Assembly (NCBI GenBank): GCA_963668425.1 | Contig: OY764332.1 | Span: forward strand, 188,943-252,942 | Origin: Minisyncoccota bacterium | Lineage (GTDB): Bacteria; Patescibacteriota; Minisyncoccia; Phycocordibacterales; JABAAK01 | Length of the DNA stretch: 64,000 nucleotides | Direction of reading: 5' to 3' | Shown: in pieces, positions 8,715 through 50,949 of the stretch | Layout: every line of letters begins with the position of its first letter | How positions within the stretch are numbered: position 1 is the stretch's first letter | Program-made: the position numbers and the translations under genes | Notes under the pieces: model-generated | What the model was told of the DNA's origin: nothing | The model's database searches: none | What the model saw: only the letters and a program-made list of their open reading frames with translations

Positions 8715-8754
8715 AAGGTTGCACGACACTATACTTGCGTGCAACCTTTTATTC
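8715..8754 (+). terminator. rho-independent terminator
   Basis: The stem is aaaggttgcacg / cgtgcaaccttt with a 12-nt loop, followed by tttattc. Confidence 0.65.
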
Positions 8755-8772
8755 ATACTTAAAACATACTGT

Positions 8773-16154: not shown

Positions 16155-16198
16155 GTTGTTTTTGATATGACTTACTCTTGAAATGCAAATATTTTTAT

Positions 16199-16290
<92 letters not shown>

Positions 16291-18065: not shown

Positions 18066-20417
18066 TTACTCAATTTTGTATATTTTTTCTGCTACATATA
18101 TCCCTTCTTCAGTATTGGCGACAACACGAACAGTTGTTTCCTGTTCATTTTTATCCAATAACTTACTTGGATCAAAGCTCAGCATCGGCAAGTGTGATGA
18201 TCCGATAAGTGTGCCATTCACATAAAATTCATACTGTACTCTTTCTGCCGGTATTTTCTTCACTGCAATGGTGGTTATTTCATCTATATATATTTTTGAT
18301 TGTGGTGATTGTATAGAAAAGTTCTTCACCAAGCTTTCTCTGTTGCGACTATACTCCTCCTGTATCTCATTTCCCTCAAGCCAGTACTGTACTCCATACT
18401 CCCAATGCTCATACTGCGGCTCTTTAGAAGGATCATGAGCGTGCTGTGTTGGCTTATTCCTTTGAATGTAGTGCAATATTGTGTGTGGATCATCAGTATC
18501 TATCCTACCGAGCACTATATCTGGAGACAATTCTGGTGGAATGGTGTTTCGTGTAAAGTACGTCCCTTGCTCGCCATATTGCTCGGATACTGTTGTAACA
18601 ATTTGTCTTAGTAGTGGCGCAAGATGAAATCCGGCAGCGTTGTTCTCCAGCGGCGTGTTATCTGAATTCCCTGCCCACACCAGTACTACAATATCTGGAG
18701 AATATCCAACTATCCAAATATCACGAGCGTTGTTTGTGGTGCCGGTTTTTACTGCAACCGGTGGGTTGGTTATATACATTGCTGAACCCCTGCCGAACAC
18801 CGGTGCTCGTGCATCATCATCAAAGAGCATGTCAGTGATGTCTTGTGTTACATGTCGCTCCAGCACTTGTTTTTCAGATTTCTCTTCTCCATATTGCCAT
18901 ATGTACGGCACAAGCGTGCCTTCATTTGCAAATACACTATATGCCTGTGCCATTTCCAGTGGTGTTATATCTGCTCCGCCGAGTACTAAACTTAACCCGT
19001 AGTGGTTTTGGTTTTGCGTCAATGATGTGATGCCCATTTTTCTTGCCTGTTGAATTACATTTGCCACACCTGCTATATACAGCACTTTTACTGCTGGTAT
19101 GTTGATGGATTGTGCAAGCGCATCACGTAACGATATTGGTCCCACAAACCTTCCAGTGTAGTTAACTGGTGCATAACAACCGCGCTTGGTACTTTCAAAT
19201 CTATCTTTCTCACAATTCGCGTTGAATTGAGTCGGCGTATCATAAATAATAGTTTGTGGCGTGAGTCCTTTTTTAATTGCCTCTGCATATGCTATCGGTT
19301 TAAAGGTTGAGCCTGGTTGTCGAAGTGAGGTAATGATGTTTACCCGCCCGTCAATTTCATTGTCAAAGAAATCTCGCGAACCGACCATTGAAAGAACCTC
19401 GCCGGTCTTTGCTGAAAGTACGACGGATGCGATATTGCCAACCTTAAATTGCTCTTCCAGTTTTGTCTCTAAAAATTCCTGCGTCATTTTTTCAATTTCT
19501 TCCTGCATCTCAATATCAATAGTTGTTTGTACACGCTGCCCTTCAAGATTTCTCAGTCCGGCGCCATGCTCTTTTTCCAGCTGTTCTTTTGCAAAAAATA
19601 CAAAATGCGGTGCGCGGATTGAAAAGGTGTCCTGACTTTGGAAATACACCTCTTCTGCTCGTGCTCTGCGATATTCGTCCCTCGTTATTAAATTGTGTTT
19701 TAACATTAGTTGGAGTGTATGATTTTTTCTTGCCTCAAGTGCCCTTCTGTTTTGCCCATATGGTGAATAGTACGTTGGCGCTTTTGGAATTGCTGCGAGA
19801 TATGCTGACTCTGCGATTGTTAGCTCGCTTGGCTTTTTGCCGTAAAATGATTTGCTCGCTTCTGCTATACCATATGACACTCCGCCGTATGGTATGGTAT
19901 TAAGATACATCTCAAGAATTTCCTCTTTGTTTAATTGTTTCTCTAACTTTATTGCAAGTAAAAACTCTTTCATTTTTCGTTCTATTTTTTTCTCTGTGGT
20001 GAGGAATACATTTTTAATCACCTGCTGTGTGATTGTTGACCCTCCTTGGCTAAAAGACAGTGTGCGTATGTTGTTAATAAGCGCGCGTAAAAATGCATCA
20101 ATGCGAACACCGCCATGCTCAAAAAAGAGATGGTCCTCTATTGCAATGGTTGCGTTGATAACATTTTTTGATATTTCCTCATATGGAACAAAGGTTCTTT
20201 TTTCATTCACTGAAAAATCAAATAGAAACTTGTCATTCCGATCAGTCAATATGATGGACTGCTTAGATACGACGTTTTGTATGTCTACACCCGGCAGTGG
20301 GGTGAAGGTGTAAAAAAGTGTTATGTATCCTGCAGTAAAAAATGCCACTGACAGTGACAAGAGAATGATATTTTTTATTGTAAAAAAATTTTTCACAGTA
20401 TTAACAGGATACTCCAT
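18066..20417 (-). CDS. class A penicillin-binding protein (glycosyltransferase + transpeptidase) with C-terminal extension
   Basis: N-terminal TM. GT51 motifs (EDHLFFEHGGV, GGSTITQQVIKN). TP motifs (STFKP, SIN, KTGT). ~170-aa C-terminal domain of unknown function. Confidence 0.85.
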   Translation of the reverse strand: MEYPVNTVKNFFTIKNIILLSLSVAFFTAGYITLFYTFTPLPGVDIQNVVSKQSIILTDRNDKFLFDFSVNEKRTFVPYEEISKNVINATIAIEDHLFFEHGGVRIDAFLRALINNIRTLSFSQGGSTITQQVIKNVFLTTEKKIERKMKEFLLAIKLEKQLNKEEILEMYLNTIPYGGVSYGIAEASKSFYGKKPSELTIAESAYLAAIPKAPTYYSPYGQNRRALEARKNHTLQLMLKHNLITRDEYRRARAEEVYFQSQDTFSIRAPHFVFFAKEQLEKEHGAGLRNLEGQRVQTTIDIEMQEEIEKMTQEFLETKLEEQFKVGNIASVVLSAKTGEVLSMVGSRDFFDNEIDGRVNIITSLRQPGSTFKPIAYAEAIKKGLTPQTIIYDTPTQFNANCEKDRFESTKRGCYAPVNYTGRFVGPISLRDALAQSINIPAVKVLYIAGVANVIQQARKMGITSLTQNQNHYGLSLVLGGADITPLEMAQAYSVFANEGTLVPYIWQYGEEKSEKQVLERHVTQDITDMLFDDDARAPVFGRGSAMYITNPPVAVKTGTTNNARDIWIVGYSPDIVVLVWAGNSDNTPLENNAAGFHLAPLLRQIVTTVSEQYGEQGTYFTRNTIPPELSPDIVLGRIDTDDPHTILHYIQRNKPTQHAHDPSKEPQYEHWEYGVQYWLEGNEIQEEYSRNRESLVKNFSIQSPQSKIYIDEITTIAVKKIPAERVQYEFYVNGTLIGSSHLPMLSFDPSKLLDKNEQETTVRVVANTEEGIYVAEKIYKIE

Positions 20418-20906
20418 TTATCCTTGGTCCGTAAGAAATGGCACCGCCGCCAGATGAGTAATGCCAATGGCAATGGCATCATACTCATCATCATGTCGCT
20501 TCTTCTCATTTAATGCAATGAGCCGTGGCACCATACGAATAATATCTTTTTTGGTGGCGTTGCTGTTCCCGGTAATTGCGTTCTTTACCTGATTTGGTGT
20601 GTATTCAATTACCGTTAAACCATACTCTTTTGTGGTGTAGATACATACTCCGCGCACTTCTGCTGTCTGCAAGGCGGTCTTTTTATTTTTTGAAAAAAAA
20701 AGTCGTTCTATTGCTGCACAGTTCGGCTGATATGCTTGTATAATACTTCGTATCCGACCACCTATCTGGGTCAATCGGCTTTCAAATGCCGTTTCCTTCT
20801 CGGTCTCAAAACATTCTGAAAAAAGTAGGTTGGTTTTCCCGTCTTTTTTTGCTACTACTGCAAACCCTATGCGTCCGTATCCTGGATCTATGGCGAGCAC
20901 TTTCAT
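20418..20906 (-). CDS. ruvC: crossover junction endodeoxyribonuclease RuvC
   Basis: MKVLAIDPGYGRIGFAVV, RNase H-like fold. Confidence 0.85.
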   Translation of the reverse strand: MKVLAIDPGYGRIGFAVVAKKDGKTNLLFSECFETEKETAFESRLTQIGGRIRSIIQAYQPNCAAIERLFFSKNKKTALQTAEVRGVCIYTTKEYGLTVIEYTPNQVKNAITGNSNATKKDIIRMVPRLIALNEKKRHDDEYDAIAIGITHLAAVPFLTDQG

Positions 20907-20907
20907 A

Positions 20908-21438
20908 CTATGCTTTGTTTGTAACTATTTCTTGTGTGTCCTCCTGTTCATGCAGATCAGCCACAAGTGTATTCAGTTTTGCTGCATCTGTTTCTGATAA
21001 TGATACTGTTGTGTTCGGTGTGATGCTACTTCCCTGGTTGCTGAATACCCATGCTGCTGATCCTGGTGCGCCAACGGTGTATCCGTTTTTTGTGGCAATG
21101 TGCCGAATCTCTGCCGCGGTGCGGTTTTTGTTGTCAGTTAATGCCTTGATGAGAATGGCACACCCACCTGGACCGTACATCTCATAGGTAATTGTTTCTG
21201 ATGATTCCGCATCATTTTCAATGCCTCGCTTAATTGCTCGGTCTATGTTTTGTGACGGCATGTTCGCTGCTTTTGCCTGCTCTATTGCCGATTTTACTGC
21301 TGGTGCGTTGCGATTGCCATCATGTTTTTTTGATTCTACTGCCAGCAGTTTTGCCAGCCGAGAGAATGTCTTACTCTTTTGTGCATCAGTCCCTGCTTTT
21401 TTATGCTTAATTTTAGACCATTTATTATGTCCCGCCAT
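20908..21438 (-). CDS. yebC: YebC/PmpR family DNA-binding regulator (short)
   Basis: MAGHNKWSKIKHKKAGTDAQKSKTFSRLAKLL is the YebC N-terminus. At 176 aa it is shorter than the usual ~240. Confidence 0.75.
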   Translation of the reverse strand: MAGHNKWSKIKHKKAGTDAQKSKTFSRLAKLLAVESKKHDGNRNAPAVKSAIEQAKAANMPSQNIDRAIKRGIENDAESSETITYEMYGPGGCAILIKALTDNKNRTAAEIRHIATKNGYTVGAPGSAAWVFSNQGSSITPNTTVSLSETDAAKLNTLVADLHEQEDTQEIVTNKA

Positions 21439-21449
21439 ACGATATGATA

Positions 21450-22442
21450 TTAAAGAGATCTCAGATATGCTGCTCCTTTTTCGGTGATACTTCTGCCGCG
21501 AGGGGTGCGCTCTATGAGTCCTGCTTGAATGAGGAAAGGTTCGTATACTTCTTCAATGGTACCCACATCCTCTGAGAGAGTGGTGGCGAGCGCTTGGATA
21601 CCGACTGGACCACCATTAAACGATTCCTGGATTGTTCTGAGCATTGCCCTATCTTCTGCAGTAAGCCCATATTCATCTATATCACGCTCTGAGAGAGCGC
21701 TCTGCACTATATCAGATGTAATATCTACAGTATGCACTTGTGCGTAATCTCGCACTCGCTTAAGAAGGTAGTTAGCGATTCGTGGTGTGCTGCGCGCTCG
21801 CCCTGCAATATTGCTCGCGGCTTTCTCTGGCAGGGTAATGCCCAGCACTGATGCCGATCGCATGATGATCTGCGCAATCTCATCTTCTGTGTACGGGATC
21901 AATCGCATAACGCCGCCGGAAAATCGTGTGCGCAGTGGCGTAGACAATCTTCCCACTTGCGTTGTCGCGGCAATGATAACAATCGGTGGCAAATTGATCT
22001 CGACTGAGCGAGCGGTCGGCCCTTTTCCGACAATGATAGAAATATTACCGCTTTCCATTATTGGATATAACACCTCTTCTATATTTTTGCTCAATCTATG
22101 TATTTCGTCTATAAACAATACGCCGCCATTTTCCATTGCTGATGCAAGAGAAACAATATCTCCTGCACGCTCTATCATTGGTCCGGATGTAGTGTGTACT
22201 GGCACTTCCAACACTGAGCCGATGATATACGCTAATGTTGTTTTCCCTAAACCTGCGGGGCCGTATAACAGGATATGTTCTGGCATTTGCCCTCTTTCTT
22301 TTGCTGCCTCTATAAGGATGTGTAGGTTTTTCTTTATCATCTCCTGTCCGATATAGTCATCCCAGTGCTTAGGACGCAGCAAACTATCCAAAGAATGCTC
22401 TAGTGATTGTTTATTTTCTATAGCAATATCATTTATACTCAT
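21450..22442 (-). CDS. ruvB: Holliday junction branch-migration helicase RuvB
   Basis: ILLYGPAGLGKTTLAYIIG (Walker A), IDEIHRL, C-terminal winged helix. Start at Met4 of the ORF. Confidence 0.9.
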   Translation of the reverse strand: MSINDIAIENKQSLEHSLDSLLRPKHWDDYIGQEMIKKNLHILIEAAKERGQMPEHILLYGPAGLGKTTLAYIIGSVLEVPVHTTSGPMIERAGDIVSLASAMENGGVLFIDEIHRLSKNIEEVLYPIMESGNISIIVGKGPTARSVEINLPPIVIIAATTQVGRLSTPLRTRFSGGVMRLIPYTEDEIAQIIMRSASVLGITLPEKAASNIAGRARSTPRIANYLLKRVRDYAQVHTVDITSDIVQSALSERDIDEYGLTAEDRAMLRTIQESFNGGPVGIQALATTLSEDVGTIEEVYEPFLIQAGLIERTPRGRSITEKGAAYLRSL

Positions 22443-22451
22443 ATATAACAA

Positions 22452-24137
22452 TTAGATAACAATACCAATAACACGTGACACCTCTTCTAAGGAGGTCATA
22501 CCTTTCAATACCTTCCACAACGCGTCATCTTCCATAAAAGGAAACCCTTGTTTGCGTACCTCTGTGCGTAATGCGGTAATGCCGCCCTCTTCACGAATAA
22601 CTCGCTCAATTTCATCATTAACCTCAAACACCTCAAATACACCGATTCTTTTTTTGTATCCGTCATTACACTCCTGACAATTTTGTGACGCCTCACTTGG
22701 TCTTCTGATGGCATTCAAGTCAAAATCTTCTTTATATTGCTCTGGAAACTTTTCTATCATTTGCTGTATTACTGTTTTCTGACTGTCCGTTAACGGGTGT
22801 TGCTCTGAACAGGTCGGGCATATTCGTCGTACCAGTCGTTGCGCAATAATAATGTTAATTGCCCGTGAAAATGTTTGTGGATCTGTGTCAAATTGCAGAA
22901 GTCGTGGTAGTGCTCCGAGCGCATCATTGGTGTGTAATGTTGAAAAAACCAAATGCCCGGTTAGTGCCGCCTGTATAGCGACTTGTGCGACTTCAGCGTC
23001 GCGAATCTCCCCCACTAAAATGACATCAGGGTCCTGCCGAAGGATAGCACGCAATCCTGTGGCAAATGAGTACTCTCCATCAATCTCTGTTTGCACGATA
23101 CCTTCAAGGCGGTATTCTATTGGGTCTTCCAGTGTAACGGTCTTGATGTGCTCACCTTTTACTATACTAAGAAATGAGTATAGCGTTGTTGTTTTTCCTG
23201 AGCCAGTTGGTCCGGTGTTTAAGATCATGCCATTCGGTCGTTTGATATGCTTCATAAAAACCTCAAGCATCATTGGATGAATCCCTAATCGCTCAATACT
23301 ATGCACAATATTCTTCGGATCAAGGAGCCGTATCACAAATGAGCCACCTTCGTCCTCTGGTATCACAGATGAACGAACACTGAGTGTTCTCTTCGGAAGA
23401 TGCACCACAAAACCTCCGTCTTGTGCCCCTTTCGCAGTTATTTTCATACTGGAAACCAATTTCATTCTGGTAACCACCTGTTTATACTCTAGTTCTCCGA
23501 GTTCAGTTATATCAGTGAGTACACCATCTATACGATACCGCACCACTCCACCGTCTGATGACGGTTCAATATGTATGTCTGATGCGTTTACCGCAATTGC
23601 AGTCGCCACAATATATTCAACATTCTTTGATATTCGCCGTGTCCGGCTCATTTTTTTGAGATCACGCAACATATCGCGAACTGCCTCAATTGATTCTATG
23701 CTTTTTATTTTTTGTTCTAATTCTTCGTTTGCGATAGAGAGTGTTCCTGGTGAAGTTGCACTCGTTGTAATAATATCTTTGTAATACATCCATATTTGCT
23801 CCAGCGTTTTTGTTGAAGCAAGGGTTAATTCGTGTGAATATCCTTTCTCCTCAAGATTGCGAAGTATTTCTGCTAGTTTCTTATTATTAGGCTCATTCAC
23901 TGCTATTGTCAATACTCCTTTTAATCGCTTATATGCCGCCATTTTTGCTTCTCGCGCATCAACCTCTTTGACGAGCTGGAGTGCATTAGGATTTACTTGT
24001 ATATCGGCAATATGAATGGCAGGGTGGTGATATTTACCAGAAAGATATTCCATCAATCGTTCTTCTTCCTCTTCCTTGTACTCTTTCAAGTCCTTTTGAA
24101 ACTCTTGTACTGGTGTATTAGTAACAGTCATTGTCAT
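22452..24137 (-). CDS. pilB: type IV pilus assembly ATPase PilB (GspE family)
   Basis: NGMILNTGPTGSGKTTTLYS (Walker A), TLEDPIEY, tetracysteine CPTCSEQ...CQEC. Start at Met17 (MTMTVTNT). Confidence 0.85.
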   Translation of the reverse strand: MTMTVTNTPVQEFQKDLKEYKEEEEERLMEYLSGKYHHPAIHIADIQVNPNALQLVKEVDAREAKMAAYKRLKGVLTIAVNEPNNKKLAEILRNLEEKGYSHELTLASTKTLEQIWMYYKDIITTSATSPGTLSIANEELEQKIKSIESIEAVRDMLRDLKKMSRTRRISKNVEYIVATAIAVNASDIHIEPSSDGGVVRYRIDGVLTDITELGELEYKQVVTRMKLVSSMKITAKGAQDGGFVVHLPKRTLSVRSSVIPEDEGGSFVIRLLDPKNIVHSIERLGIHPMMLEVFMKHIKRPNGMILNTGPTGSGKTTTLYSFLSIVKGEHIKTVTLEDPIEYRLEGIVQTEIDGEYSFATGLRAILRQDPDVILVGEIRDAEVAQVAIQAALTGHLVFSTLHTNDALGALPRLLQFDTDPQTFSRAINIIIAQRLVRRICPTCSEQHPLTDSQKTVIQQMIEKFPEQYKEDFDLNAIRRPSEASQNCQECNDGYKKRIGVFEVFEVNDEIERVIREEGGITALRTEVRKQGFPFMEDDALWKVLKGMTSLEEVSRVIGIVI

Positions 24138-24231
24138 AATTGTACCATGCTTGCCTCTGGTACCCGAAGAGAGCCATTTTTGCATGTGGTGTTATGCGTT
24201 TTGCAGATTGCTTCGTGTGGTGGTGTGTGCA

Positions 24232-25569
24232 CTATAATCGTAGCATCCAAAGAGCCATGTCATATTTATTTATAAAAAACAGAAATTCTCCGTCTGTGCT
24301 TATTTGAGGGTGAACAACGTCAAATGTAGTGTTGTTAGAAAGGAGTTGAATTTCATCCTGATCAGGTGAGAGTGGTAATTGCTTTTCTCCTGTTGCTGCA
24401 TTCACTAATATAATCACATCGTTCAAAGAAATGTCCCCCTGGTACCACGAGTCAGGAAACATTGTTTCATACCCAGAAAGGGTTTCTGCAGGGACAGATT
24501 TCGGCACGGCACATACAAATACTCCATTCACTGTATCACATTTTTCAGGTAGCGTTATTGGTAGGTCAATAGAAACGCTTCGGTCTCGATTAGTAATGGA
24601 TGCTTTTCCGGCGAAATTATCCGCCTTTGTTTCAAACAACATAAAATATCCTGTTGTTGTGTCCATCAAAGCCGATCCACCTGAGTCAAGAGAAACGAAT
24701 TGCTCATCGGGCAGAACACCTTTCGGATCAATAAGATACACAAACCCTTTCATGAGATCAGTGACAGGGGTGTGCAATGTGATGTGCGTGCCATTACCCC
24801 ATCGCGGAATCCAAGAGGTGAAATCTGATCGCCAAATCACTTGTGTCTTTGATGGATTTGAGACATCAACAATGACACCAACTGATTTGTCATCAATCAC
24901 CTGAATAAAAAAGAGGAGGTTTTTATTATTTGTTGCGACACGAATGTTGTCCTCAAACCGCTGGACACTTGGACTGGTGTTGACTGTAGAAAAAGGAACA
25001 AATGCAGATCGTATTACGGATTCGTCATCGGCACTTTCATATAGCACAAGCACCTCACCATTTTCAAACGGATACCCCTCAACCGCTCGGGTAAATTCAC
25101 CACGCGCAGTCAGTGTTAAAGAGTACGGAATAGCTTGTACTGCATACCGATTTCCCCGCCCTTGCTCAACAACCTGCACTTCCCAGCCATCTCCTTTCTT
25201 CGCGACACGATACCCTGCTGTTGGACCCTTAAAGAGTCGTATTAGCCGTGGTATGTTTTCCTTGTCTTCGGTGATAGTGTCATTAATATCATTACGCTCA
25301 TCGGATAGTGGAATTGTACGCACCCGATCATCCCGCTGCCCCACCTCATCATTAGAAACAGAGCGCTCAAAAGAGATTTGATTCGGTTGTGTTGCTTCAA
25401 GGTTATTAAGACCGAGAGATGGCACTTGTGGAAGAGTGGGTGTAGTTGTTTCCGGCGGCGCAGGAGTAGGTGGCTCTGCGGAGAAATATACATAAATACC
25501 GGCGAAAAGTAATGCGAGAAACACTAAAAAAACAATTACAGCAATAGTAAACCTTTTTATAGGAGTCAT
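24232..25569 (-). CDS. membrane-anchored hypothetical protein (PT-rich linker, beta-propeller-like C-terminus)
   Basis: N-terminal TM MTPIKRFTIAVIVFLVFLALLFAGIYVYF, then PPTPAPPETTTPTLP. C-terminal PQISTDGEFLFF resembles TolB-type blades. Confidence 0.5.
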   Translation of the reverse strand: MTPIKRFTIAVIVFLVFLALLFAGIYVYFSAEPPTPAPPETTTPTLPQVPSLGLNNLEATQPNQISFERSVSNDEVGQRDDRVRTIPLSDERNDINDTITEDKENIPRLIRLFKGPTAGYRVAKKGDGWEVQVVEQGRGNRYAVQAIPYSLTLTARGEFTRAVEGYPFENGEVLVLYESADDESVIRSAFVPFSTVNTSPSVQRFEDNIRVATNNKNLLFFIQVIDDKSVGVIVDVSNPSKTQVIWRSDFTSWIPRWGNGTHITLHTPVTDLMKGFVYLIDPKGVLPDEQFVSLDSGGSALMDTTTGYFMLFETKADNFAGKASITNRDRSVSIDLPITLPEKCDTVNGVFVCAVPKSVPAETLSGYETMFPDSWYQGDISLNDVIILVNAATGEKQLPLSPDQDEIQLLSNNTTFDVVHPQISTDGEFLFFINKYDMALWMLRL

Positions 25570-25595
25570 ATGATACTAGTATATCGCGACAAGAA

Positions 25596-27215
25596 CTATT
25601 TATCACACTTAATCCCACCCTCATATGTTTTATCGCCTTGTGTTATATCTCCCCATGTAATATCAAAGCAGTGTGTTGTACTAAGAGGTATTTGTATGGC
25701 ACTGTCTTTATCAAGTAGCGGACCTGTATTTGCCGGTATTATGAATACCATACAAAACTTTTGAACATTCTTGTTAAAGTAAAAATCAACAGTAAACCCA
25801 TCTCCTAGTTTTTTCACCCTATTTTGAATTGAAAAAGCAAAATCACTATTAACGACCTTTGATGATTTATCGTATGCTGTGTATTCTGCAAGAATACCAT
25901 TTGTACCATTGTAGGTGTGATCAATAAAGTGAATCTTTTGATCAGACCTTGCACTCTTAAGATTGTCTACACCACTAATTTTAAAATTAAATTGAGCGCC
26001 GTGCTTTTTTCCGTAAGCAGCACTTAACTCCTCCCCTTTGGGTGGATGAATAAGGTATTGTGTATTTGGACAATTTGTAACAGATGATTTGATGAATGAT
26101 TGTATCTGAGAGGTTAGGTGTGCATCTTCATTTTTATTTTTCCATGGTAGTCCATGCCAAAATTTCTTCTGCACAACTTTTGTTTCAGTTTGGTCTGTAT
26201 TTGGTACTTTCTCAGATTCTTCAACTCCAATAGATACAGCAGGAAAAGCAACAACAATCTCTACGTCATCTGGTAGTTGTATTACTGATTCATCGGGTTT
26301 GTTTGGTGGCGTGCAGTTAATAACCTTCGCCCCTTCATTTTCATTCTCCTCATTATAGGTATATACCCTATCACTCACCGCTCTTGTATATAAAACCTGA
26401 TAAGAATACTGCAATGGAATGGGTGATGTGTCATGCTGCAAAGATTTTTTAATGCTATTTAATTGATCTCTAAAATTAGTGTCAACGATTTCAGGGCAGC
26501 GAGTTATGGTTAGTTTTTTACTTGATTTGTCAAATTCAATACCATTTTCTGGAATTTCCAGATTGTTTGAGTATAATTCAGAACCTTGTCCGACTTCCTG
26601 TAGACCTGTGATTGTTTGAAATAACCTAGGTCGCAGGAGGGATGGAGCAATAAAGTTTAAGATAACCCAAGAAAGTAGCAGAATAGCGGTGCCGATTGCA
26701 GCACTTTTTACTCGCCCTTTTGCGTCAGAAAAAACTGCAACATTGCCTCCAAACTCGGCATAGATCATCCGAGTGCCATGCACTGCCAGCAGTATGACCA
26801 TAAGTATCCCAGAAAGTGTGAAAATGATACTAAAAAAACGACCAAAAATTCCTTGGATTGTTCTACTTACAGACTCCCTGTCATTGTTACTTGCTTTAAT
26901 TTCTTTTCCTGCGCCAAAAATACTGCTGTATAGGTGTAATCTCAACGGCTCTTTCCCTGCTATACTCTGCTGAGCAGGATTAACGGTTGTTGGTGGCGAT
27001 GTTTCGTTTTCATTATCTTCGCCATCTTTGTCATCTTCGCTATCTTTGTTATCGTTGGTGTTTCCTAGATTATCAGGTAATTCAACATCGGCTGCATTGG
27101 TTTCCTGTATGTCAACTATCGGACCTTGTGCAAACAAGACACCACCAAAAAGACCCCCTATACTACAGACGAAAAGTAAACTGAATATCAGATTGTTGTA
27201 AATCTTTGTTTTCAT
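25596..27215 (-). CDS. membrane protein with acidic low-complexity region and a VirB2/TrbC-like two-helix hairpin, plus a large extracytoplasmic domain
   Basis: The start was moved to Met20 (27215). The hairpin is IQGIFGRFFSIIFTLSGILMVILLAVHGTRMIYAEFGG...AKGRVKSAAIGTAILLLSWVIL. There is a paralogous hairpin in the CDS at 44701..45870. Confidence 0.5.
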   Translation of the reverse strand: MKTKIYNNLIFSLLFVCSIGGLFGGVLFAQGPIVDIQETNAADVELPDNLGNTNDNKDSEDDKDGEDNENETSPPTTVNPAQQSIAGKEPLRLHLYSSIFGAGKEIKASNNDRESVSRTIQGIFGRFFSIIFTLSGILMVILLAVHGTRMIYAEFGGNVAVFSDAKGRVKSAAIGTAILLLSWVILNFIAPSLLRPRLFQTITGLQEVGQGSELYSNNLEIPENGIEFDKSSKKLTITRCPEIVDTNFRDQLNSIKKSLQHDTSPIPLQYSYQVLYTRAVSDRVYTYNEENENEGAKVINCTPPNKPDESVIQLPDDVEIVVAFPAVSIGVEESEKVPNTDQTETKVVQKKFWHGLPWKNKNEDAHLTSQIQSFIKSSVTNCPNTQYLIHPPKGEELSAAYGKKHGAQFNFKISGVDNLKSARSDQKIHFIDHTYNGTNGILAEYTAYDKSSKVVNSDFAFSIQNRVKKLGDGFTVDFYFNKNVQKFCMVFIIPANTGPLLDKDSAIQIPLSTTHCFDITWGDITQGDKTYEGGIKCDK

Positions 27216-28167
27216 TTTGAGCAAATACACGAATAGGTATTTCGGTGTTCTCACCCTGAACAGAAATATCAAGCTTTCTACCCTCCTTTAGATGGCTTGT
27301 TTCGTTATTTACAAACCACCTGTATTGTATCGCATTTTTTTCAAAATCGGACTGATTGAAGTAAAATGGGTACACTGAAGCCGTAATTTCCTCACTCCCG
27401 AGAGAAAGATTTTTGGAGAAAACCCGATCTCGAGCAAGTCCATATAGTAAGGTGTGTGGATATACTAATAATCGCGGTTCAATGATAGGAACATTAATGA
27501 TTTTTTCAAAGGCAACCTTGCCGCTTTTAATGAGTGTTGCTTCAACCTGTACAATGATATACCTATTCAAATAACTTCCACCATCTTCATACACCACACT
27601 ACTAACTCCGGGACCCCGACTGCTATGATATCGTGATTCAATCATCCAACGAAATGAAAAGTCCCTCTCGGTATATATAACACCATCTTGGTCAACATAC
27701 TGTATTTTTGCTGAAAGCTTTATCGGTGTCTGTGGTCCTGCGAGCCGATGTCCCCGATATAGTGGCGTGACTACTGAATCCGCCTCCCACAACACATCAA
27801 AAATAACTGGTCGTATCCATCTGGAAATATCTATAAATCTTTTGTCGCCTTGTGAATCAAAGTAATGTATTCGTGCGTTCACTCGCTTTGGTGCGCTGCT
27901 GGCAATTTCGGTAATCTCCATCTTGTTTGTGTACTCTGCCCGCTCAGTGCCGTCAACATACCATGTGACCAATTGAATACTGGAGATAAATGATTTGTTA
28001 GATCTGATGGTGAAATCAACATACTTACCTGGTGACGGGTACGACTCACTTACAACAATTTCATATGCATCATAACTCCCTTGCACTTGCGCGAATGCAG
28101 TGTGAGAAAGCATTAAAAATCCACTCAAAAAAACAATGTATGCATAGAAAAGAAATAGCGTTCGCAT
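27163..28167 (-). CDS. secreted hypothetical protein
   Basis: Signal peptide MRTLFLFYAYIVFLSGFLMLSHTAFAQ. No recognisable domain. Confidence 0.5.
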   Translation of the reverse strand: MRTLFLFYAYIVFLSGFLMLSHTAFAQVQGSYDAYEIVVSESYPSPGKYVDFTIRSNKSFISSIQLVTWYVDGTERAEYTNKMEITEIASSAPKRVNARIHYFDSQGDKRFIDISRWIRPVIFDVLWEADSVVTPLYRGHRLAGPQTPIKLSAKIQYVDQDGVIYTERDFSFRWMIESRYHSSRGPGVSSVVYEDGGSYLNRYIIVQVEATLIKSGKVAFEKIINVPIIEPRLLVYPHTLLYGLARDRVFSKNLSLGSEEITASVYPFYFNQSDFEKNAIQYRWFVNNETSHLKEGRKLDISVQGENTEIPIRVFAQNENKDLQQSDIQFTFRL

Positions 28168-28228
28168 ATGGTGTCAAGTATACCCTGAAAAACCACTACC
28201 ACACGCATAAGGTGCTTGACCTGTGCTG

Positions 28229-28969
28229 TTATAGGAATTTTTGTAAAAACTCTGGCGGCCCTATCTTACTGAAAACCGACAGATCTCCGATGAGGAAAAA
28301 TACCCCTAGCGCAATAAACAATAATCCGCCGATAATTCGCATGCTTGGGAGAAATTTTGGTATGTCTTGTAGCCGTTCAGCAGCTTTTGTGTATATGAGT
28401 GCAAGGATAGTGAGCGGTAGCATAATACCTAGAGCAAATGCAGATAATAGCAACATTCCTGTTATTGTTGACCCTGAACTTGCTGCTAATGTTAGTACGC
28501 CACCAAGTACTGGACCGATACATGGCGACCATCCGGCGGCAAATATTGCACCGATCAGCACAATGCCCCACCACGAATGTACCGAGAGTGCTTTCGGTAT
28601 TGGAAATGATTTATTGTTGAGCAACCTTTCTGGCAGTGGTACCGCACGTAATAATACCAGTCCGACAATGATAAAAAATATTGCCCCAACAATTATTACT
28701 ATCGGCTTTATTTCGTTGAATAGCGCCGTCGTCTCACTAAACTGCCCAAATAAGCCAGCAACGCCACCAAATATGGCGTATGTTATTGCAAAACCGATAA
28801 AAAACCAGGTTGTTGTGGTGAGTGTGTACGGGATGTTATTACTATCTTCATCGCCGATGATAAGCGCAATGTATCCTAACACCATCGGATATGTACATGG
28901 CAGAAAGACGGTGATAATTCCTGCAAATATGGTTACTGCAAAACTTATTAAGGATAATTGCTCTATCAT
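28229..28969 (-). CDS. ccdA: cytochrome c-type biogenesis / thiol-disulfide transporter CcdA (DsbD family)
   Basis: Six TM helices with the two conserved Cys motifs FLPCTYPM and GWSPCIGP. Confidence 0.8.
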   Translation of the reverse strand: MIEQLSLISFAVTIFAGIITVFLPCTYPMVLGYIALIIGDEDSNNIPYTLTTTTWFFIGFAITYAIFGGVAGLFGQFSETTALFNEIKPIVIIVGAIFFIIVGLVLLRAVPLPERLLNNKSFPIPKALSVHSWWGIVLIGAIFAAGWSPCIGPVLGGVLTLAASSGSTITGMLLLSAFALGIMLPLTILALIYTKAAERLQDIPKFLPSMRIIGGLLFIALGVFFLIGDLSVFSKIGPPEFLQKFL

Positions 28970-29676
28970 TGTATTGCCTTCAGCATATTTCGCACCTGGT
29001 CTACTGGCAGTGCACCTGGTATAGATTGTACTCCTTTGGTTTTTGTATTGACTAAGAATGATCCCGGCGTACCATTGACACCCATTTTCTGTGCATCTTG
29101 TATATCCTGTTCAACACTTCTTTGCTCATTACTATCTGTCGCGAGACAGCCGTCTATTTGCGCTTCAGAAATGCCAATATCCTGCGCAAGCGCTTTATAT
29201 GTTTCAAGATTTAAGGTGCTTGCAGCAAATACATTATTTGTGTATGTCCAGAATGCTTCCGATCCTCTGTGTGTTTTAACACATTCCCCAAGTACCGCAC
29301 CATCTTTGGCGGTTGCGTGAAATGGTAATGGTAGGTGTCGATATATCCATGTTACTTCCCCACTGTCTACTAGTGCCTGTGCTGTCTTGTGGAATTGTTG
29401 GCAGAACGGACATTCATAATCTGAATACTCTATCAATACTATATCTCCATTGCCCTGGGGTGCATCGCTGTCACGTATCGCTAATATGTTAAGATCCGGT
29501 GCTACTTGTGGCTCAGATGGCGCTACTTCTCCTCCTCCTCCACCTGCAGGAGGTGCTACTGCTACAGTTCCGCTTTTTCCATGCATTAGTCCAGCGTAGA
29601 AGACCGCTGCTATAGCAATGAGTACCGCAAAGGCAGTGATCATACTATTAGTGGTATTTTCTTTTTCTTTGTTCAT
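28966..29676 (-). CDS. membrane-anchored DsbA-family thiol:disulfide oxidoreductase
   Basis: N-terminal TM, GGGGG linker, thioredoxin-fold active site YECPFCQQF. Confidence 0.8.
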   Translation of the reverse strand: MNKEKENTTNSMITAFAVLIAIAAVFYAGLMHGKSGTVAVAPPAGGGGGEVAPSEPQVAPDLNILAIRDSDAPQGNGDIVLIEYSDYECPFCQQFHKTAQALVDSGEVTWIYRHLPLPFHATAKDGAVLGECVKTHRGSEAFWTYTNNVFAASTLNLETYKALAQDIGISEAQIDGCLATDSNEQRSVEQDIQDAQKMGVNGTPGSFLVNTKTKGVQSIPGALPVDQVRNMLKAIQ

Positions 29677-29741
29677 ATTGTTTATGTATTATATAACTTA
29701 CTAAATAATTATGTCTATACTATACCATATTTTTAATGCGG

Positions 29742-30449
29742 TTATGGCCTTGCTTTTGCCACCAATACTTTCACCCGTTCCAAAAATTTGCTGTATTCGT
29801 TTGCGTATGAAATCCCAACTGGTCGATCTTTGTACACTACCACGATATATGGTGTTCCGCGAGAACCTAACCGCCACCCCTCACTGCTGTCCTCTTCTAT
29901 GCGATCACGCACTTTCATATCAGTTGCTATGCACTCCTGAAACTCCTGTGCATCCGCTCCGAGGTCAATCGCCTTGCTTTCCAACATTTTTGTATCGCTA
30001 ATATTTCTTTGATTTTTGTATACATATTGAGTAAATAGGAAAAAGGGTTCTTCACCGGCATGCTTTGCTACACATTCAGCAGCAACTGCCGCTTCAAATG
30101 CAGCTCCTTTTTTATGTGGATAGAGGTGCCGTGACACCAACATAATACCTTCTTCCCGTACAATTTTCTTAAAATTTTCCTGCATTGCCGCGCACATGAT
30201 ACAACCCAGGTCTGAGTACTCAATGAGTACTACGTCAGCATCAGCATCTCCTCGAACATGGTCAACAGAGCGGATATCTTGCATACCAACTACCGTGTGT
30301 TGTGAATCAACAATGCCGACACCTGCTGCAACGTGTTTTACTGAACGCAGTATCGGGTGCTCCACATATAGCAGCACTCCTATTACCATCACTATGGCAA
30401 TACCTATCACTACTCTCCGTCTGATATTCATACCTTGCTTGCTTTGCAT
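29742..30449 (-). CDS. second DsbA-like thioredoxin-fold protein (atypical CIMC active site)
   Basis: N-terminal TM, then VVLIEYSDLGCIMCAAM, parallel to VLIEYSDYECPFCQQF in its neighbour. Confidence 0.65.
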   Translation of the reverse strand: MQSKQGMNIRRRVVIGIAIVMVIGVLLYVEHPILRSVKHVAAGVGIVDSQHTVVGMQDIRSVDHVRGDADADVVLIEYSDLGCIMCAAMQENFKKIVREEGIMLVSRHLYPHKKGAAFEAAVAAECVAKHAGEEPFFLFTQYVYKNQRNISDTKMLESKAIDLGADAQEFQECIATDMKVRDRIEEDSSEGWRLGSRGTPYIVVVYKDRPVGISYANEYSKFLERVKVLVAKARP

Positions 30450-30515
30450 ATAGTTATAGTATATCTTTATAAACTATCCCTCAGCATATCCCTCTTTGTG
30501 CTCTTGTGGCGATCT

Positions 30516-31634
30516 CTACCCTTCCAGAGCTCGTAGCGCTGCCCCCACTGCCACTGAAAACTCCGACCCGCTCTCTTTTAATGTCTCAGACAGCAGTGCT
30601 GGATGCCGCAGGCGCGCGAACGGGTTTGCTATCTCAACGCCGATTTTCGTTTTTGCTTTTACCTCCTCCAGCAGCCCTGTCATAGATGCACCACCTCCGG
30701 TTAGTATAACCTTAGAAACGGACTGATGATATCGCTGTTCAAAATCAATGATTGCATTATTTGCTTCTGTGAAAATTTCATCAACAATAAGTGCCATAGC
30801 ATGTCGTGTGTCCTTATCTTCTATCTTGAAACCAAACTCTCGTTTTCTGTGTTCTGCCTCTTTGAACGGTATGTTTTCTGTTCTTGCTATTGCCTGTGAA
30901 ATACTTTGTCCTCCTTGGTTGATAAAGAATGACCGAAGAATAATACCGTGTTCAACAACATACAACTTTGTGGATCGCGCCCCTATATCAATAATAATAA
31001 TCGGTAATCCACCATCATACACTGAAGAGCGCAATGTGCTGAATATCTCAATCTCAAAGTATTGCGTGTTTAGTTTTGTTTTGTTTAAAATATTTTTATG
31101 TTTGATGAGTTCGTGATTGTGAATGGCAATCAAAAGCACCTTTCGTTTATCGTCTTGTTGGCTAATGGGTGTAATATCATCTTCAAAAATAGGTGCGTTA
31201 TCTTTGCTCAGCAATGCTTGCGGCACCACAAACCAATCCAGTGATACATCTTCAAGTGGTACCGGTATATATCGTTTTGCTTCAAACGGAATTGTCTGTG
31301 CTATTTTTTCATCAGAGAGTGCTGGTACCTCAATAAGCGATATTAAACTGGAGTGAAATGGTATAGAAACACACGCCAATGATGTAGTAACTTTTGCTTC
31401 CTGTAATAATGCTGATAGCACAGTATATAAAACTTCTTCACTAGCGTTTGCGTGCTGTCCAATCTCCGCACCTTCAACATAGGGCCCTATTGCTAATGAT
31501 CCGTAGGTTTCCAGAACGGCAATTCCTTTTTCTTGTCGAATCTGTACTACCTTTATTGAGGATGATCCAATGTCTATCCCTATAACACTATGCTTTCCTC
31601 CCTTTAAGAATGAAAGAAATTTTGGTATTGGCAT
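30516..31634 (-). CDS. pilM: type IV pilus assembly protein PilM (actin-like ATPase)
   Basis: VIGIDIGSSSIKVVQI...; ASKHA-fold segments throughout; no TM helix. Confidence 0.8.
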   Translation of the reverse strand: MPIPKFLSFLKGGKHSVIGIDIGSSSIKVVQIRQEKGIAVLETYGSLAIGPYVEGAEIGQHANASEEVLYTVLSALLQEAKVTTSLACVSIPFHSSLISLIEVPALSDEKIAQTIPFEAKRYIPVPLEDVSLDWFVVPQALLSKDNAPIFEDDITPISQQDDKRKVLLIAIHNHELIKHKNILNKTKLNTQYFEIEIFSTLRSSVYDGGLPIIIIDIGARSTKLYVVEHGIILRSFFINQGGQSISQAIARTENIPFKEAEHRKREFGFKIEDKDTRHAMALIVDEIFTEANNAIIDFEQRYHQSVSKVILTGGGASMTGLLEEVKAKTKIGVEIANPFARLRHPALLSETLKESGSEFSVAVGAALRALEG

Positions 31635-31671
31635 TGTATTTAAAAGTATTTAGTATATAGTATACATCATA

Positions 31672-32331
31672 ATGACAGTAAAATATCGGCTCATTGCGTG
31701 TTTGAAGGTGTTGTTTGAGATAGTATTTCCGAAGAAAAAACACAGTGCCGCAGTAGAGAAACGAGGTGTTCTGATGATCACTCGTCAGAAAGAGCCAATA
31801 CAAAACAAGGGGCATTTTGCTTTGCTGTCGTACAATAGTGCTTCAGTGAAAGATTTCCTGTACGCGATAAAATATGAGCAGCACAGAGAGAGTATTGAAG
31901 TGGCAGCGGATATGTTGCGGGAATATATATACGATGAAATACAAGAGATGGAGGTGCTTCAGAAAATGCATTATGCGCTCTGTGCTATCCCAATAACGGA
32001 AGAACGAAAAGTGAGTAATGGCTATAACCACCTACATGTCATATTTGATGTACTTTATGCACATCTGTCGGACAGTACACTGCCCATACAGGACAAAAGG
32101 GATTTGCTCACATGGACACGGCAGGTCAATAGGCAAAGCAGGTTGCGAAATCGGTCCGATCGGTTCAAAAATGTGAGTGGTGCTATGGCTACAACTGATC
32201 AACTTTTTTCAAATACGATTTATTTTGTTATAGATGACATAACCACTACCGGTGCAACACTCGCTGAGGCTCGTCATGTACTTATCGCAAACGGTGCGCA
32301 TACTGTTATCACCCTTGCCCTTGCACATTAG
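31672..32331 (+). CDS. comFC: ComF family protein (phosphoribosyltransferase domain; ComFC-like)
   Basis: C-terminal PRTase motif YFVIDDITTTGATLAEARHVLIANGA. Confidence 0.7.
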   Translation: MTVKYRLIACLKVLFEIVFPKKKHSAAVEKRGVLMITRQKEPIQNKGHFALLSYNSASVKDFLYAIKYEQHRESIEVAADMLREYIYDEIQEMEVLQKMHYALCAIPITEERKVSNGYNHLHVIFDVLYAHLSDSTLPIQDKRDLLTWTRQVNRQSRLRNRSDRFKNVSGAMATTDQLFSNTIYFVIDDITTTGATLAEARHVLIANGAHTVITLALAH

Positions 32332-44700: not shown

Positions 44701-45870
44701 TCATTGACTATATAGTGAAAAATGATCCGCGCCTATAGTGGAAATGTGATCAATCCTTTTTTGGGCTTCACTTTCACTAAACCCTTCTGCCTCTAATCCT
44801 TTTGTCACAGGACCTTTGAGGTTATCATATCTACTTTTATTTTTTACTTCATATACAGCCTTGAATCCGCTGTCTTTTGCTGCTCGTATGAACGCAACGA
44901 TGTTTGTCGCGTTCGGGGTTGTGGTGGTAAAGTTTGCGTCAACACAGGTGCAGTTTTCTGGTTTATGGCAACTGTTCTGGTGAGTGAGTGTTGGTGGACA
45001 CGCTTCAGTAACACGCCATTTCGCACTACTCTGCCCGGCAAGTTTCTGTAACTTTTCCCCAACACCCTTACTGACCCAGCATGCGTCTGTTTGATTGAAC
45101 TCATTATTTGGTTTATTTTTTTTATTGGTACACAGCTCGTGGGCATCCTTAAAACTCACCCCAAGAATACTTGCTGTTTCTGTCTGACAGCCGGGACATC
45201 TCTGCAAACTTGTAGGTTGTTGCTGTTGACCCGGATCTGGTCCCGTGGACTCTGTTGGCTCTATCGGATCATCTGTGGCTTCTGTTGGTTCCGCTGGCTC
45301 AGGTGCTGTAGGTTCTGTTGCAGGCGTTGTATCTACGGGCTCTGTTGGTGTAACTGGATCAGGAGTTGGGGACTTTGTCAGATTTGCAACATCTGGGGTT
45401 GGTAGTGATGACTCATCATATTTAAATGGATCACCATCGTTTAGATTGTAGCCGATAATATCAAAGCCGGCCTTGACAATGAGATATGCGCTGAGAATGA
45501 AGAGAAGTCCTACTAATGTTGCTCTGAGTGCATCCTGCACCTCTTTTCTTGCCTGCTGATGCCCACCTTTTGTAAACACATTGACTGCTAATTTTGTTCC
45601 TTTGTAGAAAATAAGCAACCCTGCCCCGGTAATTGCGACCCAAAGAAGTAGTTTCATCACATTATTTGCCAATTGAAAAAAATGCTTAATACTACAATCC
45701 TCCTTTCCACTTTCACCAAAACTACAATCTATTATTAGATTTGACTGTTCTGGTGTTTTTGTCACTAATGCGTTGTTTGTTTGACCAAGTACGACTGTAC
45801 TACTTATGATTGAACTTGCCACAAACACTACCGCCACAACAAGAAAATATGCCGTCTTTTGTTTGTACAT
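44701..45870 (-). CDS. membrane protein with VirB2/TrbC-like hairpin, PT-rich linker and Cys-rich extracytoplasmic domain
   Basis: Start at Met25 (MYKQKTAYFLVVAVVFVASSII). Hairpin NVMKLLLWVAITGAGLLIFYKGTKLAVNVFTKGG...ARKEVQDALRATLVGLLFILSAYLIV. PT-rich PTPDPVTPTEPVDTTPATEPTAPEPAEPTE. At least 12 Cys in the C-terminal domain. Confidence 0.5.
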   Translation of the reverse strand: MYKQKTAYFLVVAVVFVASSIISSTVVLGQTNNALVTKTPEQSNLIIDCSFGESGKEDCSIKHFFQLANNVMKLLLWVAITGAGLLIFYKGTKLAVNVFTKGGHQQARKEVQDALRATLVGLLFILSAYLIVKAGFDIIGYNLNDGDPFKYDESSLPTPDVANLTKSPTPDPVTPTEPVDTTPATEPTAPEPAEPTEATDDPIEPTESTGPDPGQQQQPTSLQRCPGCQTETASILGVSFKDAHELCTNKKNKPNNEFNQTDACWVSKGVGEKLQKLAGQSSAKWRVTEACPPTLTHQNSCHKPENCTCVDANFTTTTPNATNIVAFIRAAKDSGFKAVYEVKNKSRYDNLKGPVTKGLEAEGFSESEAQKRIDHISTIGADHFSLYSQ

Positions 45871-45950
45871 GCTGCTGTCAGTATACCGCACGTCAACGTT
45901 CCTTATTCTGCTCTTGTGGTGTCTATACGGCTGTGTTATCATGTACTCTA

Positions 45951-50631: not shown

Positions 50632-50949
50632 GTACTTATAATACCACCCTGCTGTGGTGGCATAGGACACTGTATTGCCATTATAATTAGGTAGATATAT
50701 TCTAATGTGTATGCAAAAAGGGACTTAATTTGCCCTTAAACATGCTCTGCAGTTATCAAAAAACCCTATAAAATAAGGATTTTTCTTATATTTTCTCTTA
50801 AAATTGACGAAATTTGATAAATATTGTATACTATATATAGTTTTTCTTTGACACACAATCCACATAAGGCAATCTATATCTGATACAAATGGTTGTTTTG
50901 TGTGGGTTGTGTGTTGTAATTTAACTAAATAACTAAAAAAGGAGAATGT

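Follow-up and report, generated by a model that had tools for sequence, protein, structure and literature searches.

Gene content of the locus

We analysed a window of 64,000 nt (positions 188,943 to 252,942 of contig OY764332.1, assembly GCA_963668425.1, Minisyncoccota bacterium), in which the genes for a PilM-like protein and a PilB-type ATPase enclose a group of thiol-disulfide genes and three open reading frames (ORFs) for exported proteins. A first-pass annotation had interpreted this stretch, together with competence genes elsewhere in the window, as a single DNA-uptake apparatus. The window has a GC content of about 42%, and its housekeeping genes (pheST, gyrB, secY, genes for ribosomal proteins and tRNA synthetases, pnp) are dispersed, which is typical of a very small genome. 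Look-ups of exact sequences returned no entry for window proteins. The closest named relatives of the window proteins belong to Candidatus Kaiserbacteria or Paceibacterota, and the host genome is a small Kaiserbacteria-like genome (Paceibacteria, Candidate Phyla Radiation (CPR)) of about 0.7 Mb.

Twelve co-directional genes on the minus strand form a run from 31634 to 18066, in which every gap measures 66 nt or less. They are listed here in the order of the run, preceded by the divergent comF gene:

31672..32331, plus strand: ComF-like phosphoribosyltransferase-fold protein, 219 amino acids (aa) (TIGR00201, 1.1e-17)
30516..31634, minus strand: PilM-like actin-fold protein, 372 aa (PF11104, 3.1e-37)
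29742..30449, minus strand: DsbA-like protein 1, DsbA1 (PF13462, 6.5e-19)
28966..29676, minus strand: DsbA-like protein 2, DsbA2 (PF13462, 2.3e-16; weak DsbG match)
28229..28969, minus strand: CcdA, DsbD transmembrane-domain family (PF02683, 6.6e-20; PF13386, 7.9e-15)
27163..28167, minus strand: secreted or anchored protein with three tandem immunoglobulin (Ig)-like β-sandwich domains, 334 aa, no cysteine; first gene of the triad
25596..27215, minus strand: VirB2/TrbC-like pilin fusion of T4SS (type IV secretion system) kind, 539 aa (PF18895); middle gene of the triad
24232..25569, minus strand: N-terminal transmembrane (TM) helix followed by a 7-bladed β-propeller, 445 aa; third gene of the triad
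22452..24185, minus strand: PilB/GspE-type assembly ATPase (PF00437, 5.6e-102)
21450..22451, minus strand: ruvB (Pfam)
20908..21438, minus strand: yebC (Pfam)
20418..20906, minus strand: ruvC (Pfam)
18066..20417, minus strand: class A penicillin-binding protein, PBP1 (Pfam)

The initial gene calls, with pilB and pilM flanking three secreted or membrane proteins at 24232..28167 and comF divergent from pilM, were confirmed.

Conservation of gene order in related loci

Gene order was compared with 100 related loci, numbered L001 upward. A scan of GTDB species genomes for the propeller family returned 16 loci with identities down to 23%, and ORF clustering and phmmer searches covered all loci. The full gene order is kept in nine close relatives (L001-L004 and L006-L010), in which the propeller protein is 76-84% identical. 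The same relatives keep the entire stretch from pheST to PBP1, so that conservation of the order among them is uninformative. The pilM-dsbA1 junction is broken by genes on the opposite strand in L007 and L010, and the ccdA-triad junction in L005 and L011-L024. Between the triad and pilB, L005 carries an extra gene, and L011-L014 have pilB 4-8 kb away on the opposite strand. No break was seen in the compared loci at the junctions within dsbA1-dsbA2-ccdA or between pilB and ruvB. The Ig-like, hairpin and propeller genes of the triad are present and adjacent in 24/24 loci, with order or strand altered in L013, L019 and L024, and no PilM, DsbA or CcdA gene lies within ±10 kb of the triad in any of 15 loci (L005, L011-L024). 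Since each of the junctions between modules is interrupted in at least one relative while those within modules are intact, the run divides into four separate modules. The comparison did not show the neighbourhood to be one meaningful unit; the joint order is confined to close relatives.

We consider it probable that four modules, each conserved on its own, have come to lie side by side on one strand in this lineage only and do not form a single apparatus. The first module, the divergent pair comF and pilM, would be the head of the type IV pilus operon of other CPR bacteria, truncated here. The second, dsbA1-dsbA2-ccdA, would constitute an extracytoplasmic thiol-disulfide set. The triad would represent the distal part of the origin-proximal, monoderm-conjugation-like T4SS of Patescibacteria, detached from its VirB4/VirB3/TrsD core, and the fourth module would be a PilB-like hexameric assembly ATPase in a CPR-wide block with ruvB-yebC-ruvC-PBP1.

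The triad belongs to a type IV secretion cluster

Outside the close relatives, upstream sequence was available for 14 of 15 loci (L005, L011-L024). In all 14, the genes directly 5' of the triad encode a large membrane protein, PrgI/VirB3 (PF12666), a TraC/TrsD-like protein of ~210 aa and VirB4 (P-loop_TraG PF19044, AAA_10, DUF87). On the 3' side, yidC, jag, rnpA, dnaA and dnaN follow in L005 and L011-L024. An origin-proximal Paceibacteria T4SS with this arrangement has been published (Quiñonero-Coronel et al. 2025, PMC12102498), and the T4SS cluster SEML1_0006-0019 is essential in Southlakia epibionticum (Wang et al. 2023, PMC10633639). The three proteins of the triad are the 3' end of a Patescibacterial conjugation-type T4SS cluster and not parts of a type IV pilus. 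No homolog of the T4SS core proteins of L005, L011 or L016 was detected in the window (-24 kb to +36 kb of the triad), and dnaA and dnaN are likewise absent from it, although in relatives both the T4SS block and the PilB block adjoin dnaA.

All three triad ORFs carry an N-terminal signal peptide or TM segment, and beyond one borderline match to PF18895 they showed no family match. AlphaFold2 models of the Ig-like and the propeller protein were built from alignments of 45 and 40 homologs. The model of the 334-aa protein displayed a signal peptide or anchor and three Ig-like β-sandwich domains (predicted local distance difference test, pLDDT, 85). In the 445-aa protein, aa 41-98 form a disordered linker, followed by a 7-bladed β-propeller in which one cysteine pair (Cys344/Cys353) is invariant. 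The pilin-like N-termini and PilO/PilN folds for which the first-pass annotation had proposed to search were not found: a motif scan detected no class III signal peptide (prepilin leader) in any of the three proteins, and instead of PilN, PilO or PilC folds the AlphaFold2 models showed Ig-like domains and a β-propeller, next to the VirB2-like hairpin of the middle protein. Searches of PDB sequences gave no significant match for both triad profiles, the C-domain of the pilin fusion or the hairpin profile.

The pilin fusion, whose start at 27215 agrees with the database protein P0001, comprises a Sec-type signal peptide, an acidic linker, a 2-TM hairpin (~aa 118-200) and a ~340-aa C-terminal ectodomain with 6 cysteines. 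The signal peptide and the hairpin that follows it, with hydropathy segments at aa 5-34, 122-152 and 168-196 in the window protein, are common to all 20 orthologs. The isolated hairpin of the window protein scored 31.5 bits on PF18895; 18 of 19 orthologous hairpins matched the same family (best 9.8e-10) and 4/19 matched TrbC (PF04956). A hidden Markov model (HMM) of the hairpin recovered the middle gene of every distant triad, with E-values from 3e-26 to 2.5e-6. Conservation differs strongly along the protein, with 67-95% identity among homologs in the hairpin and 15-33% in the C-domain. It is the fastest-evolving gene of the array (42-59% identity over partial length, against 57-95%, mostly >70%, in its neighbours), and its orthologs span 124 aa (hairpin only) to 720 aa. 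The number of cysteines after the hairpin is even in 19/20 homologs.

The variable extensions on a conserved hairpin indicate that the VirB2-like hairpin acts as a carrier of ectodomains. The hairpin may anchor or polymerise the protein, while the C-terminus would display a rapidly diverging, disulfide-stabilised ectodomain; in the window protein this ectodomain probably forms a surface for contact or host recognition.

In L016 (8286-9281), the hairpin protein of the triad has a YkuD L,D-transpeptidase domain as its extension (PF03734, 6e-12; PF18895, 3.2e-6), and proteins of similar size occur in L018, L021, L022 and L023. Such a fusion would give a peptidoglycan cross-linking enzyme a T4SS-pilin hairpin as its anchor, within a T4SS cluster.

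The PilB-like ATPase is part of a ruvB-linked block

The ATPase of the window, whose start probably lies near 24131 (at MTVTNTP), aligns over its full length with TIGR02538 PilB (388 bits, cutoff 676) and also with GspE, and scored 228 bits on ComGA (cutoff 300), below all equivalog cutoffs. Its match to VirB11 reached 38 bits and that to MshEN was sub-threshold; a tetracysteine motif (CPTC...CQEC) is present. A metagenome scan for PilB returned at least 80 loci, with relatives at 33-45% identity among the matches listed. Among these listed matches, ruvB lies immediately downstream in 31 of the 42 ATPase homologs scoring at least 343 bits, usually followed by yebC, ruvC, PBP1, dnaN and dnaA; most of the remaining 11 either lie at contig cuts or still have further genes of the block. 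Neither pilT nor pilC adjoins any of the 42. Upstream of the ruvB-linked ATPase, on the opposite strand, the listed matches show tsaE and polA and at times ruvA and fpg. Listed homologs below ~322 bits lack ruvB and often adjoin a PilT-like gene. The contig L064 holds both paralogs, a ruvB-linked PilB* and the pilB of a pil operon. Judged by sequence relationship and gene context, the window ATPase is the CPR-wide ruvB-linked paralog, distinct from the pilB of pil operons.

The block PilB-like ATPase-ruvB-yebC-ruvC-(x)-PBP1-dnaN-dnaA is kept in CPR contigs of 27-55% GC (L025-L064, L011-L014; window 18066-24185), a stable linkage between a type IV filament ATPase and Holliday-junction genes close to the origin. 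Some ruvB-linked ATPases are ~1005 aa long (L055, 9902-12931; L058, 6772-9789; L062, 9941-12958; L079, 1152-4172). These are tandem duplications of two complete units, the halves of which align to residues ~30-574 and 125-573 of the window PilB.

comF, pilM and further pilus and competence genes

The ComF-like protein scored 64.6 bits on TIGR00201 comF, far below the cutoff of 233, and the PilM-like protein 127 bits on TIGR01175 (cutoff 133). Of all genes in the array, pilM is conserved best (95% identity to its counterparts in L001 and L006). The two genes are separated by a spacer of 37 nt, and the divergent pair is kept in close relatives as well as in the distant CPR contig L064, where it stands at the head of a real pil operon. 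There, PilB*-ruvB is followed by comF and, divergent from it, pilM-pilN-pilO-x-pilB-x-pilT-pilC (Pfam-confirmed). Type IV pili and Com proteins are known to be linked, and the recurrence of the pair in L064 fits this link. In the window, the genes after pilM are DsbA-like, and neither Pfam nor phmmer with the L064 PilN and PilO sequences detected PilN or PilO. Homologs of the L064 PilT and PilC were not found in the window either, PF00482 (T2SSF, the PilC/GspF/ComGB platform) had no match among window ORFs of at least 100 aa, and the search for PilD in the window was negative. By analogy with L064, comF/pilM is normally the head of a pil operon, of which the remainder is missing from the window.

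Further genes that had been assigned to pili or competence lie elsewhere in the window, as initially annotated, together with a second protein carrying a VirB2-like hairpin:

8719..9636: dprA
44701..45942, minus strand: second VirB2-like-anchored exported protein, 413 aa (PF18895, 2.8e-4, below cutoff)
48565..50670, minus strand: type IV pilin-like protein with class III signal, ~690-700 aa, 14 cysteines (PF07963 N_methyl, 6e-6)
51380..52966: comM

The motif GFTLIEL in the type IV pilin-like protein is the only one of its kind within a long ORF of the window (motif scan). No ComEC (Competence/ComEC family) or ComEA (HHH) was found among the window ORFs. The 413-aa protein consists of a 2-TM hairpin, a Pro/Thr-rich linker and a Cys-rich C-domain, with 10 cysteines in all, including a CPGC motif. 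It was assigned to a different subfamily because the HMM of the triad hairpin does not recognise it. Its gene is wedged between the genes for ribosomal proteins S8 and L19.

Thiol-disulfide genes

DsbA1 and DsbA2 are 28% identical, and their second cysteine pairs align. Both matched the Thioredoxin_4/DSBA families and contain a GTP motif. DsbA1 has an N-terminal TM anchor, a CIMC active site, the T-P cis-Pro motif and a second cysteine pair (C126/C173); its nearest solved relative in a PDB sequence search is Wolbachia α-DsbA1 (3f4r). DsbA2 has a TM anchor, a CPFC active site, the Thr-cisPro motif and the pair C132/C177, and its relatives in the PDB are 4n30, C. diphtheriae DsbA, ScsC proteins and BdbD. 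At E <= 1e-3 the DsbA2 family comprises 23,791 representative clusters, and the relatives at the top of the list include many proteins of 600-1,200 aa in which 3-6 DsbA-like domains stand in tandem. CcdA shows the conserved Cys25 and Cys150 in the motifs LPCTYP and SPCIGP, and the start of its gene overlaps the stop of dsbA2 by 4 nt.

The first-pass annotation had called these genes a complete oxidative-folding set. The identities of ccdA and the two DsbA-like genes were confirmed, but the completeness of an oxidative set was not. Members of the CcdA/DsbD family conduct electrons outward from the cytoplasm and thereby supply reductant. Because CcdA exports reducing equivalents and the window ORFs include neither DsbB nor VKOR, the set is not a complete oxidative pathway. 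Both membrane-anchored CxxC proteins would act on exported cysteines. CcdA most likely holds the translationally coupled DsbA2 reduced, by analogy with ScsC/ScsB or DsbC/DsbD, so that DsbA2 could serve as isomerase or reductase, and DsbA1 would be the oxidase, the re-oxidant of which is absent from the window.

The exported proteins of the window have even numbers of cysteines (14 in the type IV pilin, 10 in the second VirB2-like protein, 6 in the ectodomain of the pilin fusion and the invariant pair of the propeller), which makes extracytoplasmic disulfide chemistry plausible. The earlier proposal that the Dsb proteins oxidise Cys-rich pilins or adhesins is therefore plausible as a general role, and its dedicated form is unsupported. 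Saccharibacteria have a lone DsbA-family gene far from the T4SS, which was called essential at later transposon sequencing (Tn-seq) time points (PMC10633639 supplement). This gene, and the occurrence of Cys-bearing pilin extensions without dsb neighbours, make a general role the better reading: the Dsb set probably serves all exported Cys proteins, the triad and the 14-Cys type IV pilin included, and is not dedicated to one machine.

We also considered whether the adjacency of dsb genes tracks Cys-bearing pilin extensions, and rejected this, since L005, L013 and L016-L023 have extensions of this kind but no dsb genes beside them. DsbA1 and DsbA2 as substitutes for PilN and PilO were considered as well, since both pairs are bitopic, and no supporting feature was found.

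Alternative explanations

An adaptive variant would have the Dsb trio moved beside the detached triad since the pilin ectodomain and the cysteine pair of the propeller need it, with an operon from dsbA1 to the propeller gene. The co-directional genes, the ccdA-Ig-like gene gap of 61 nt without predicted terminator, the persistence of the arrangement in nine related loci, the even cysteine numbers of the pilin-fusion homologs and the invariance of the propeller pair are in line with it. The nine relatives, however, are syntenic across the whole region and their conservation carries no information. In the equally close L005 the pilin fusion bears cysteines with no dsb gene next to it, distant triads have Cys-bearing extensions without such neighbours as well, and the other Cys-rich exported proteins of the window are 17-25 kb distant. 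We consider such a recruitment unlikely.

A similarly low probability applies to the view that DsbA2 and CcdA, or all three proteins, make up an extracellular system for reduction or antioxidant repair that has nothing to do with filaments, comparable to the pneumococcal CcdA-Etrx-MsrAB or to ScsB/ScsC. The CcdA-Etrx precedent is described in PMC3914529. CcdA as a conduit of reductant, the overlap of dsbA2 and ccdA and the ScsC proteins among the solved relatives of DsbA2 would suit such a system. No Msr or peroxiredoxin partner was found nearby in the window, however, exported proteins with even cysteine numbers need an oxidase or isomerase, and both proteins are of the DsbA type (Thioredoxin_4, T-cisPro, second structural cysteine pair).

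Still less probable, in our estimate, is that the detached triad works as an autonomous surface device. Its hairpin would polymerise or cluster and show a hypervariable, disulfide-locked host-recognition domain, assisted by the Ig-like and propeller proteins and folded by Dsb/CcdA, with the PilB-like ATPase as a possible source of energy. Taken more widely, this reading would make the CPR T4SS a DNA importer resembling ComB or Ced and linked to comF and ruv.

A hybrid machine, in which the ruvB-linked ATPase would supply the VirB11-like third ATPase that the CPR T4SS lacks, or the T4SS would be a ComB/Ced-like importer tied to comF and ruv, appears very improbable. In many CPR loci the ATPase block is found within ~10 kb of the T4SS cluster, the two flanking dnaA/dnaN, and in the window and L005 they are directly adjacent. 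Class ABY1 T4SS loci often contain comF, recG and radA (PMC12102498); most Patescibacterial T4SS clusters lack a relaxase, and the T4SS of S. epibionticum has no recognisable coupling or relaxase proteins. Against this stand the PilB/GspE hallmarks of the ATPase (N-terminal extension, tetracysteine motif, 388 bits to PilB versus 38 bits to VirB11) and its position mostly on the strand opposite to the T4SS with replication genes between them, a proximity that is explicable by the location of both near the origin. Moreover, S. epibionticum is the only CPR organism tested, and its essential genes include the T4SS but not comEC (PMC10633639).

The original interpretation, in which pilM and pilB bracket the proteins of one type IV pilus or natural-competence apparatus with a Dsb system dedicated to its pilins, is largely refuted and retains hardly any probability: PilM, a PilB-type ATPase and comF do lie within one 10-kb stretch, with dprA, comM and a Cys-rich type IV pilin in the window, a comF/pilM pair that recurs in L064, and the requirement of BdbDC for ComGC and ComEC in B. 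subtilis as a precedent, but the three proteins lack class III signal peptides and PilN, PilO and PilC folds, the triad travels with VirB4 and not with pil genes in 14/14 informative distant loci, the ATPase comes from the ruvB-linked group, CcdA acts reductively, the window is devoid of pilC, pilT, pilD, pilN, pilO, comEC and comEA, and dprA, comM and comF are near-universal genes, here spread over 43 kb of a 0.7-Mb genome. The three proteins proved unrelated to a pilus, whereas a separate complete pil operon, the other observation that would speak against a joint apparatus, is seen by analogy only, in L064.

Several points weigh against our interpretation of four independent modules. All twelve genes have the same direction, both in the window and in the closest relatives, with gaps of at most 66 nt and without a convincing terminator, so that co-transcription, and hence lineage-specific functional coupling of the twelve genes, may exist. 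Promoter-like and terminator-like sites were not in excess (31 versus 32.0 and 12 versus 10.1, respectively, in shuffled controls). The searches for the VirB4 core, pilC/T/D/N/O, comEC and dsbB/VKOR covered the 64-kb window alone. The redox directions proposed for DsbA1 and DsbA2 are inferred. The score of the whole pilin fusion on PF18895 (26.7 bits, cutoff 26.6) is borderline; with 539 aa it is also larger than a small VirB2-type pilin of ~100-130 aa, and an ectodomain of ~340 aa per subunit is hard to square with a canonical VirB2 pilus.

Comparison with known systems

The triad is most readily compared with the MPF-FATA-like (MPF, mating-pair formation) T4SS of Patescibacteria (PMC12102498, PMC10633639). 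Both share a PF18895/TrbC-like pilin domain and highly variable pilins, and orthologous triads follow PrgI/VirB3, TrsD-like and VirB4 genes near yidC, rnpA, dnaA and dnaN, as published for Paceibacteria. In contrast to these clusters, the triad of the window is off the VirB4 core, its pilin bears a Cys-containing ectodomain of ~340 aa, and Dsb genes and a PilB-like ATPase are its neighbours. Term searches of the main text of both papers gave no mention of the Ig-like and β-propeller proteins that flank the pilin.

With the canonical type IV/Com pilus (pilMNO-pilB-pilT-pilC-pilD and prepilins; ComGA-G), the window shares PilM, a tetracysteine PilB/GspE ATPase, one pilin with a class III signal and homologs of ComF, DprA and ComM. 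It differs in the absence of PilC, PilN, PilO, PilT and PilD from the window, in the ruvB linkage of the ATPase and in the non-pilus genes between pilM and pilB.

The comparisons with thiol-disulfide systems were drawn from general knowledge and PDB sequence matches. BdbDC (B. subtilis ComGC/ComEC), MdbA-VKOR (actinobacterial sortase pili), the TrbB/DsbC-like proteins of F-type T4SS and ScsC/ScsB resemble the set of the window in their anchored extracytoplasmic DsbA-fold CxxC proteins and in the nearby genes for Cys-containing filaments or adhesins. As in ScsB/ScsC, a gene for a DsbD-family electron conduit stands beside one DsbA-fold gene. The window differs in that it lacks DsbB/VKOR, that CcdA as the partner suggests an isomerase or reductase arm, and that the set adjoins filament genes in a single narrow lineage only.

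ComB of H. pylori and Ced of Sulfolobales are similar in that a VirB2-like pilin belongs to a T4SS without relaxase in an organism with Com genes. The window differs from them in that it offers no evidence for DNA import and the VirB4 core is absent from it.

The analysis corrects an attractive but wrong annotation as type IV pilus and competence apparatus, which automated pipelines would make likewise. It adds two conserved undescribed extracytoplasmic partners, the three-Ig-like protein and the tethered β-propeller, to the poorly understood and apparently essential T4SS of Patescibacteria, and presents the VirB2-like hairpin as a carrier of variable ectodomains, Cys-rich here and a YkuD L,D-transpeptidase in other Paceibacteria. 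The definition of a CPR-wide ruvB-linked PilB paralog provides a concrete target for work on the attachment of epibionts to their hosts and on host exploitation. The novelty is modest (two undescribed T4SS-associated proteins, a hypervariable VirB2-like carrier, a PilB paralog group) and amounts to a sharper parts list without a change of paradigm.

Further observations in the window

Cumulative GC skew has its minimum near 46-50 kb of the window and rises afterwards, maybe owing to a replication-related switch.

Close relatives carry two additional genes between pheT and comF, for a ~340-aa protein and an AstE_AspA-family protein, both of which are missing from the window. PheT itself (32498-34825, minus strand; 775 aa) contains an in-frame insert of ~142 aa (~aa 331-472, ~nt 33410-33835), which forms a complete NlpC/P60 domain (PF00877, 2.3e-13) with the Cys motif DCSSF and the His motif SHVG. 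The insert is not present in the PheT proteins of L001, L002 and L006 (630-648 aa). A cell-wall-hydrolase fold of the NlpC/P60 type inside cytoplasmic PheT suggests a domain capture or a mis-assembly.

A SocA/Panacea antitoxin-domain protein (54809-55429, plus strand), an NYN-domain nuclease (58210-58716, minus strand), a tyrosine recombinase (Phage_integrase; 60004-60885, plus strand) and, at 14348-16247, an N6/N4 DNA methylase beside an unassigned 355-aa ORF that overlaps a tRNA-Ser gene are also encoded in the window. These genes are possible remnants of toxin-antitoxin systems, restriction-modification systems or mobile elements.

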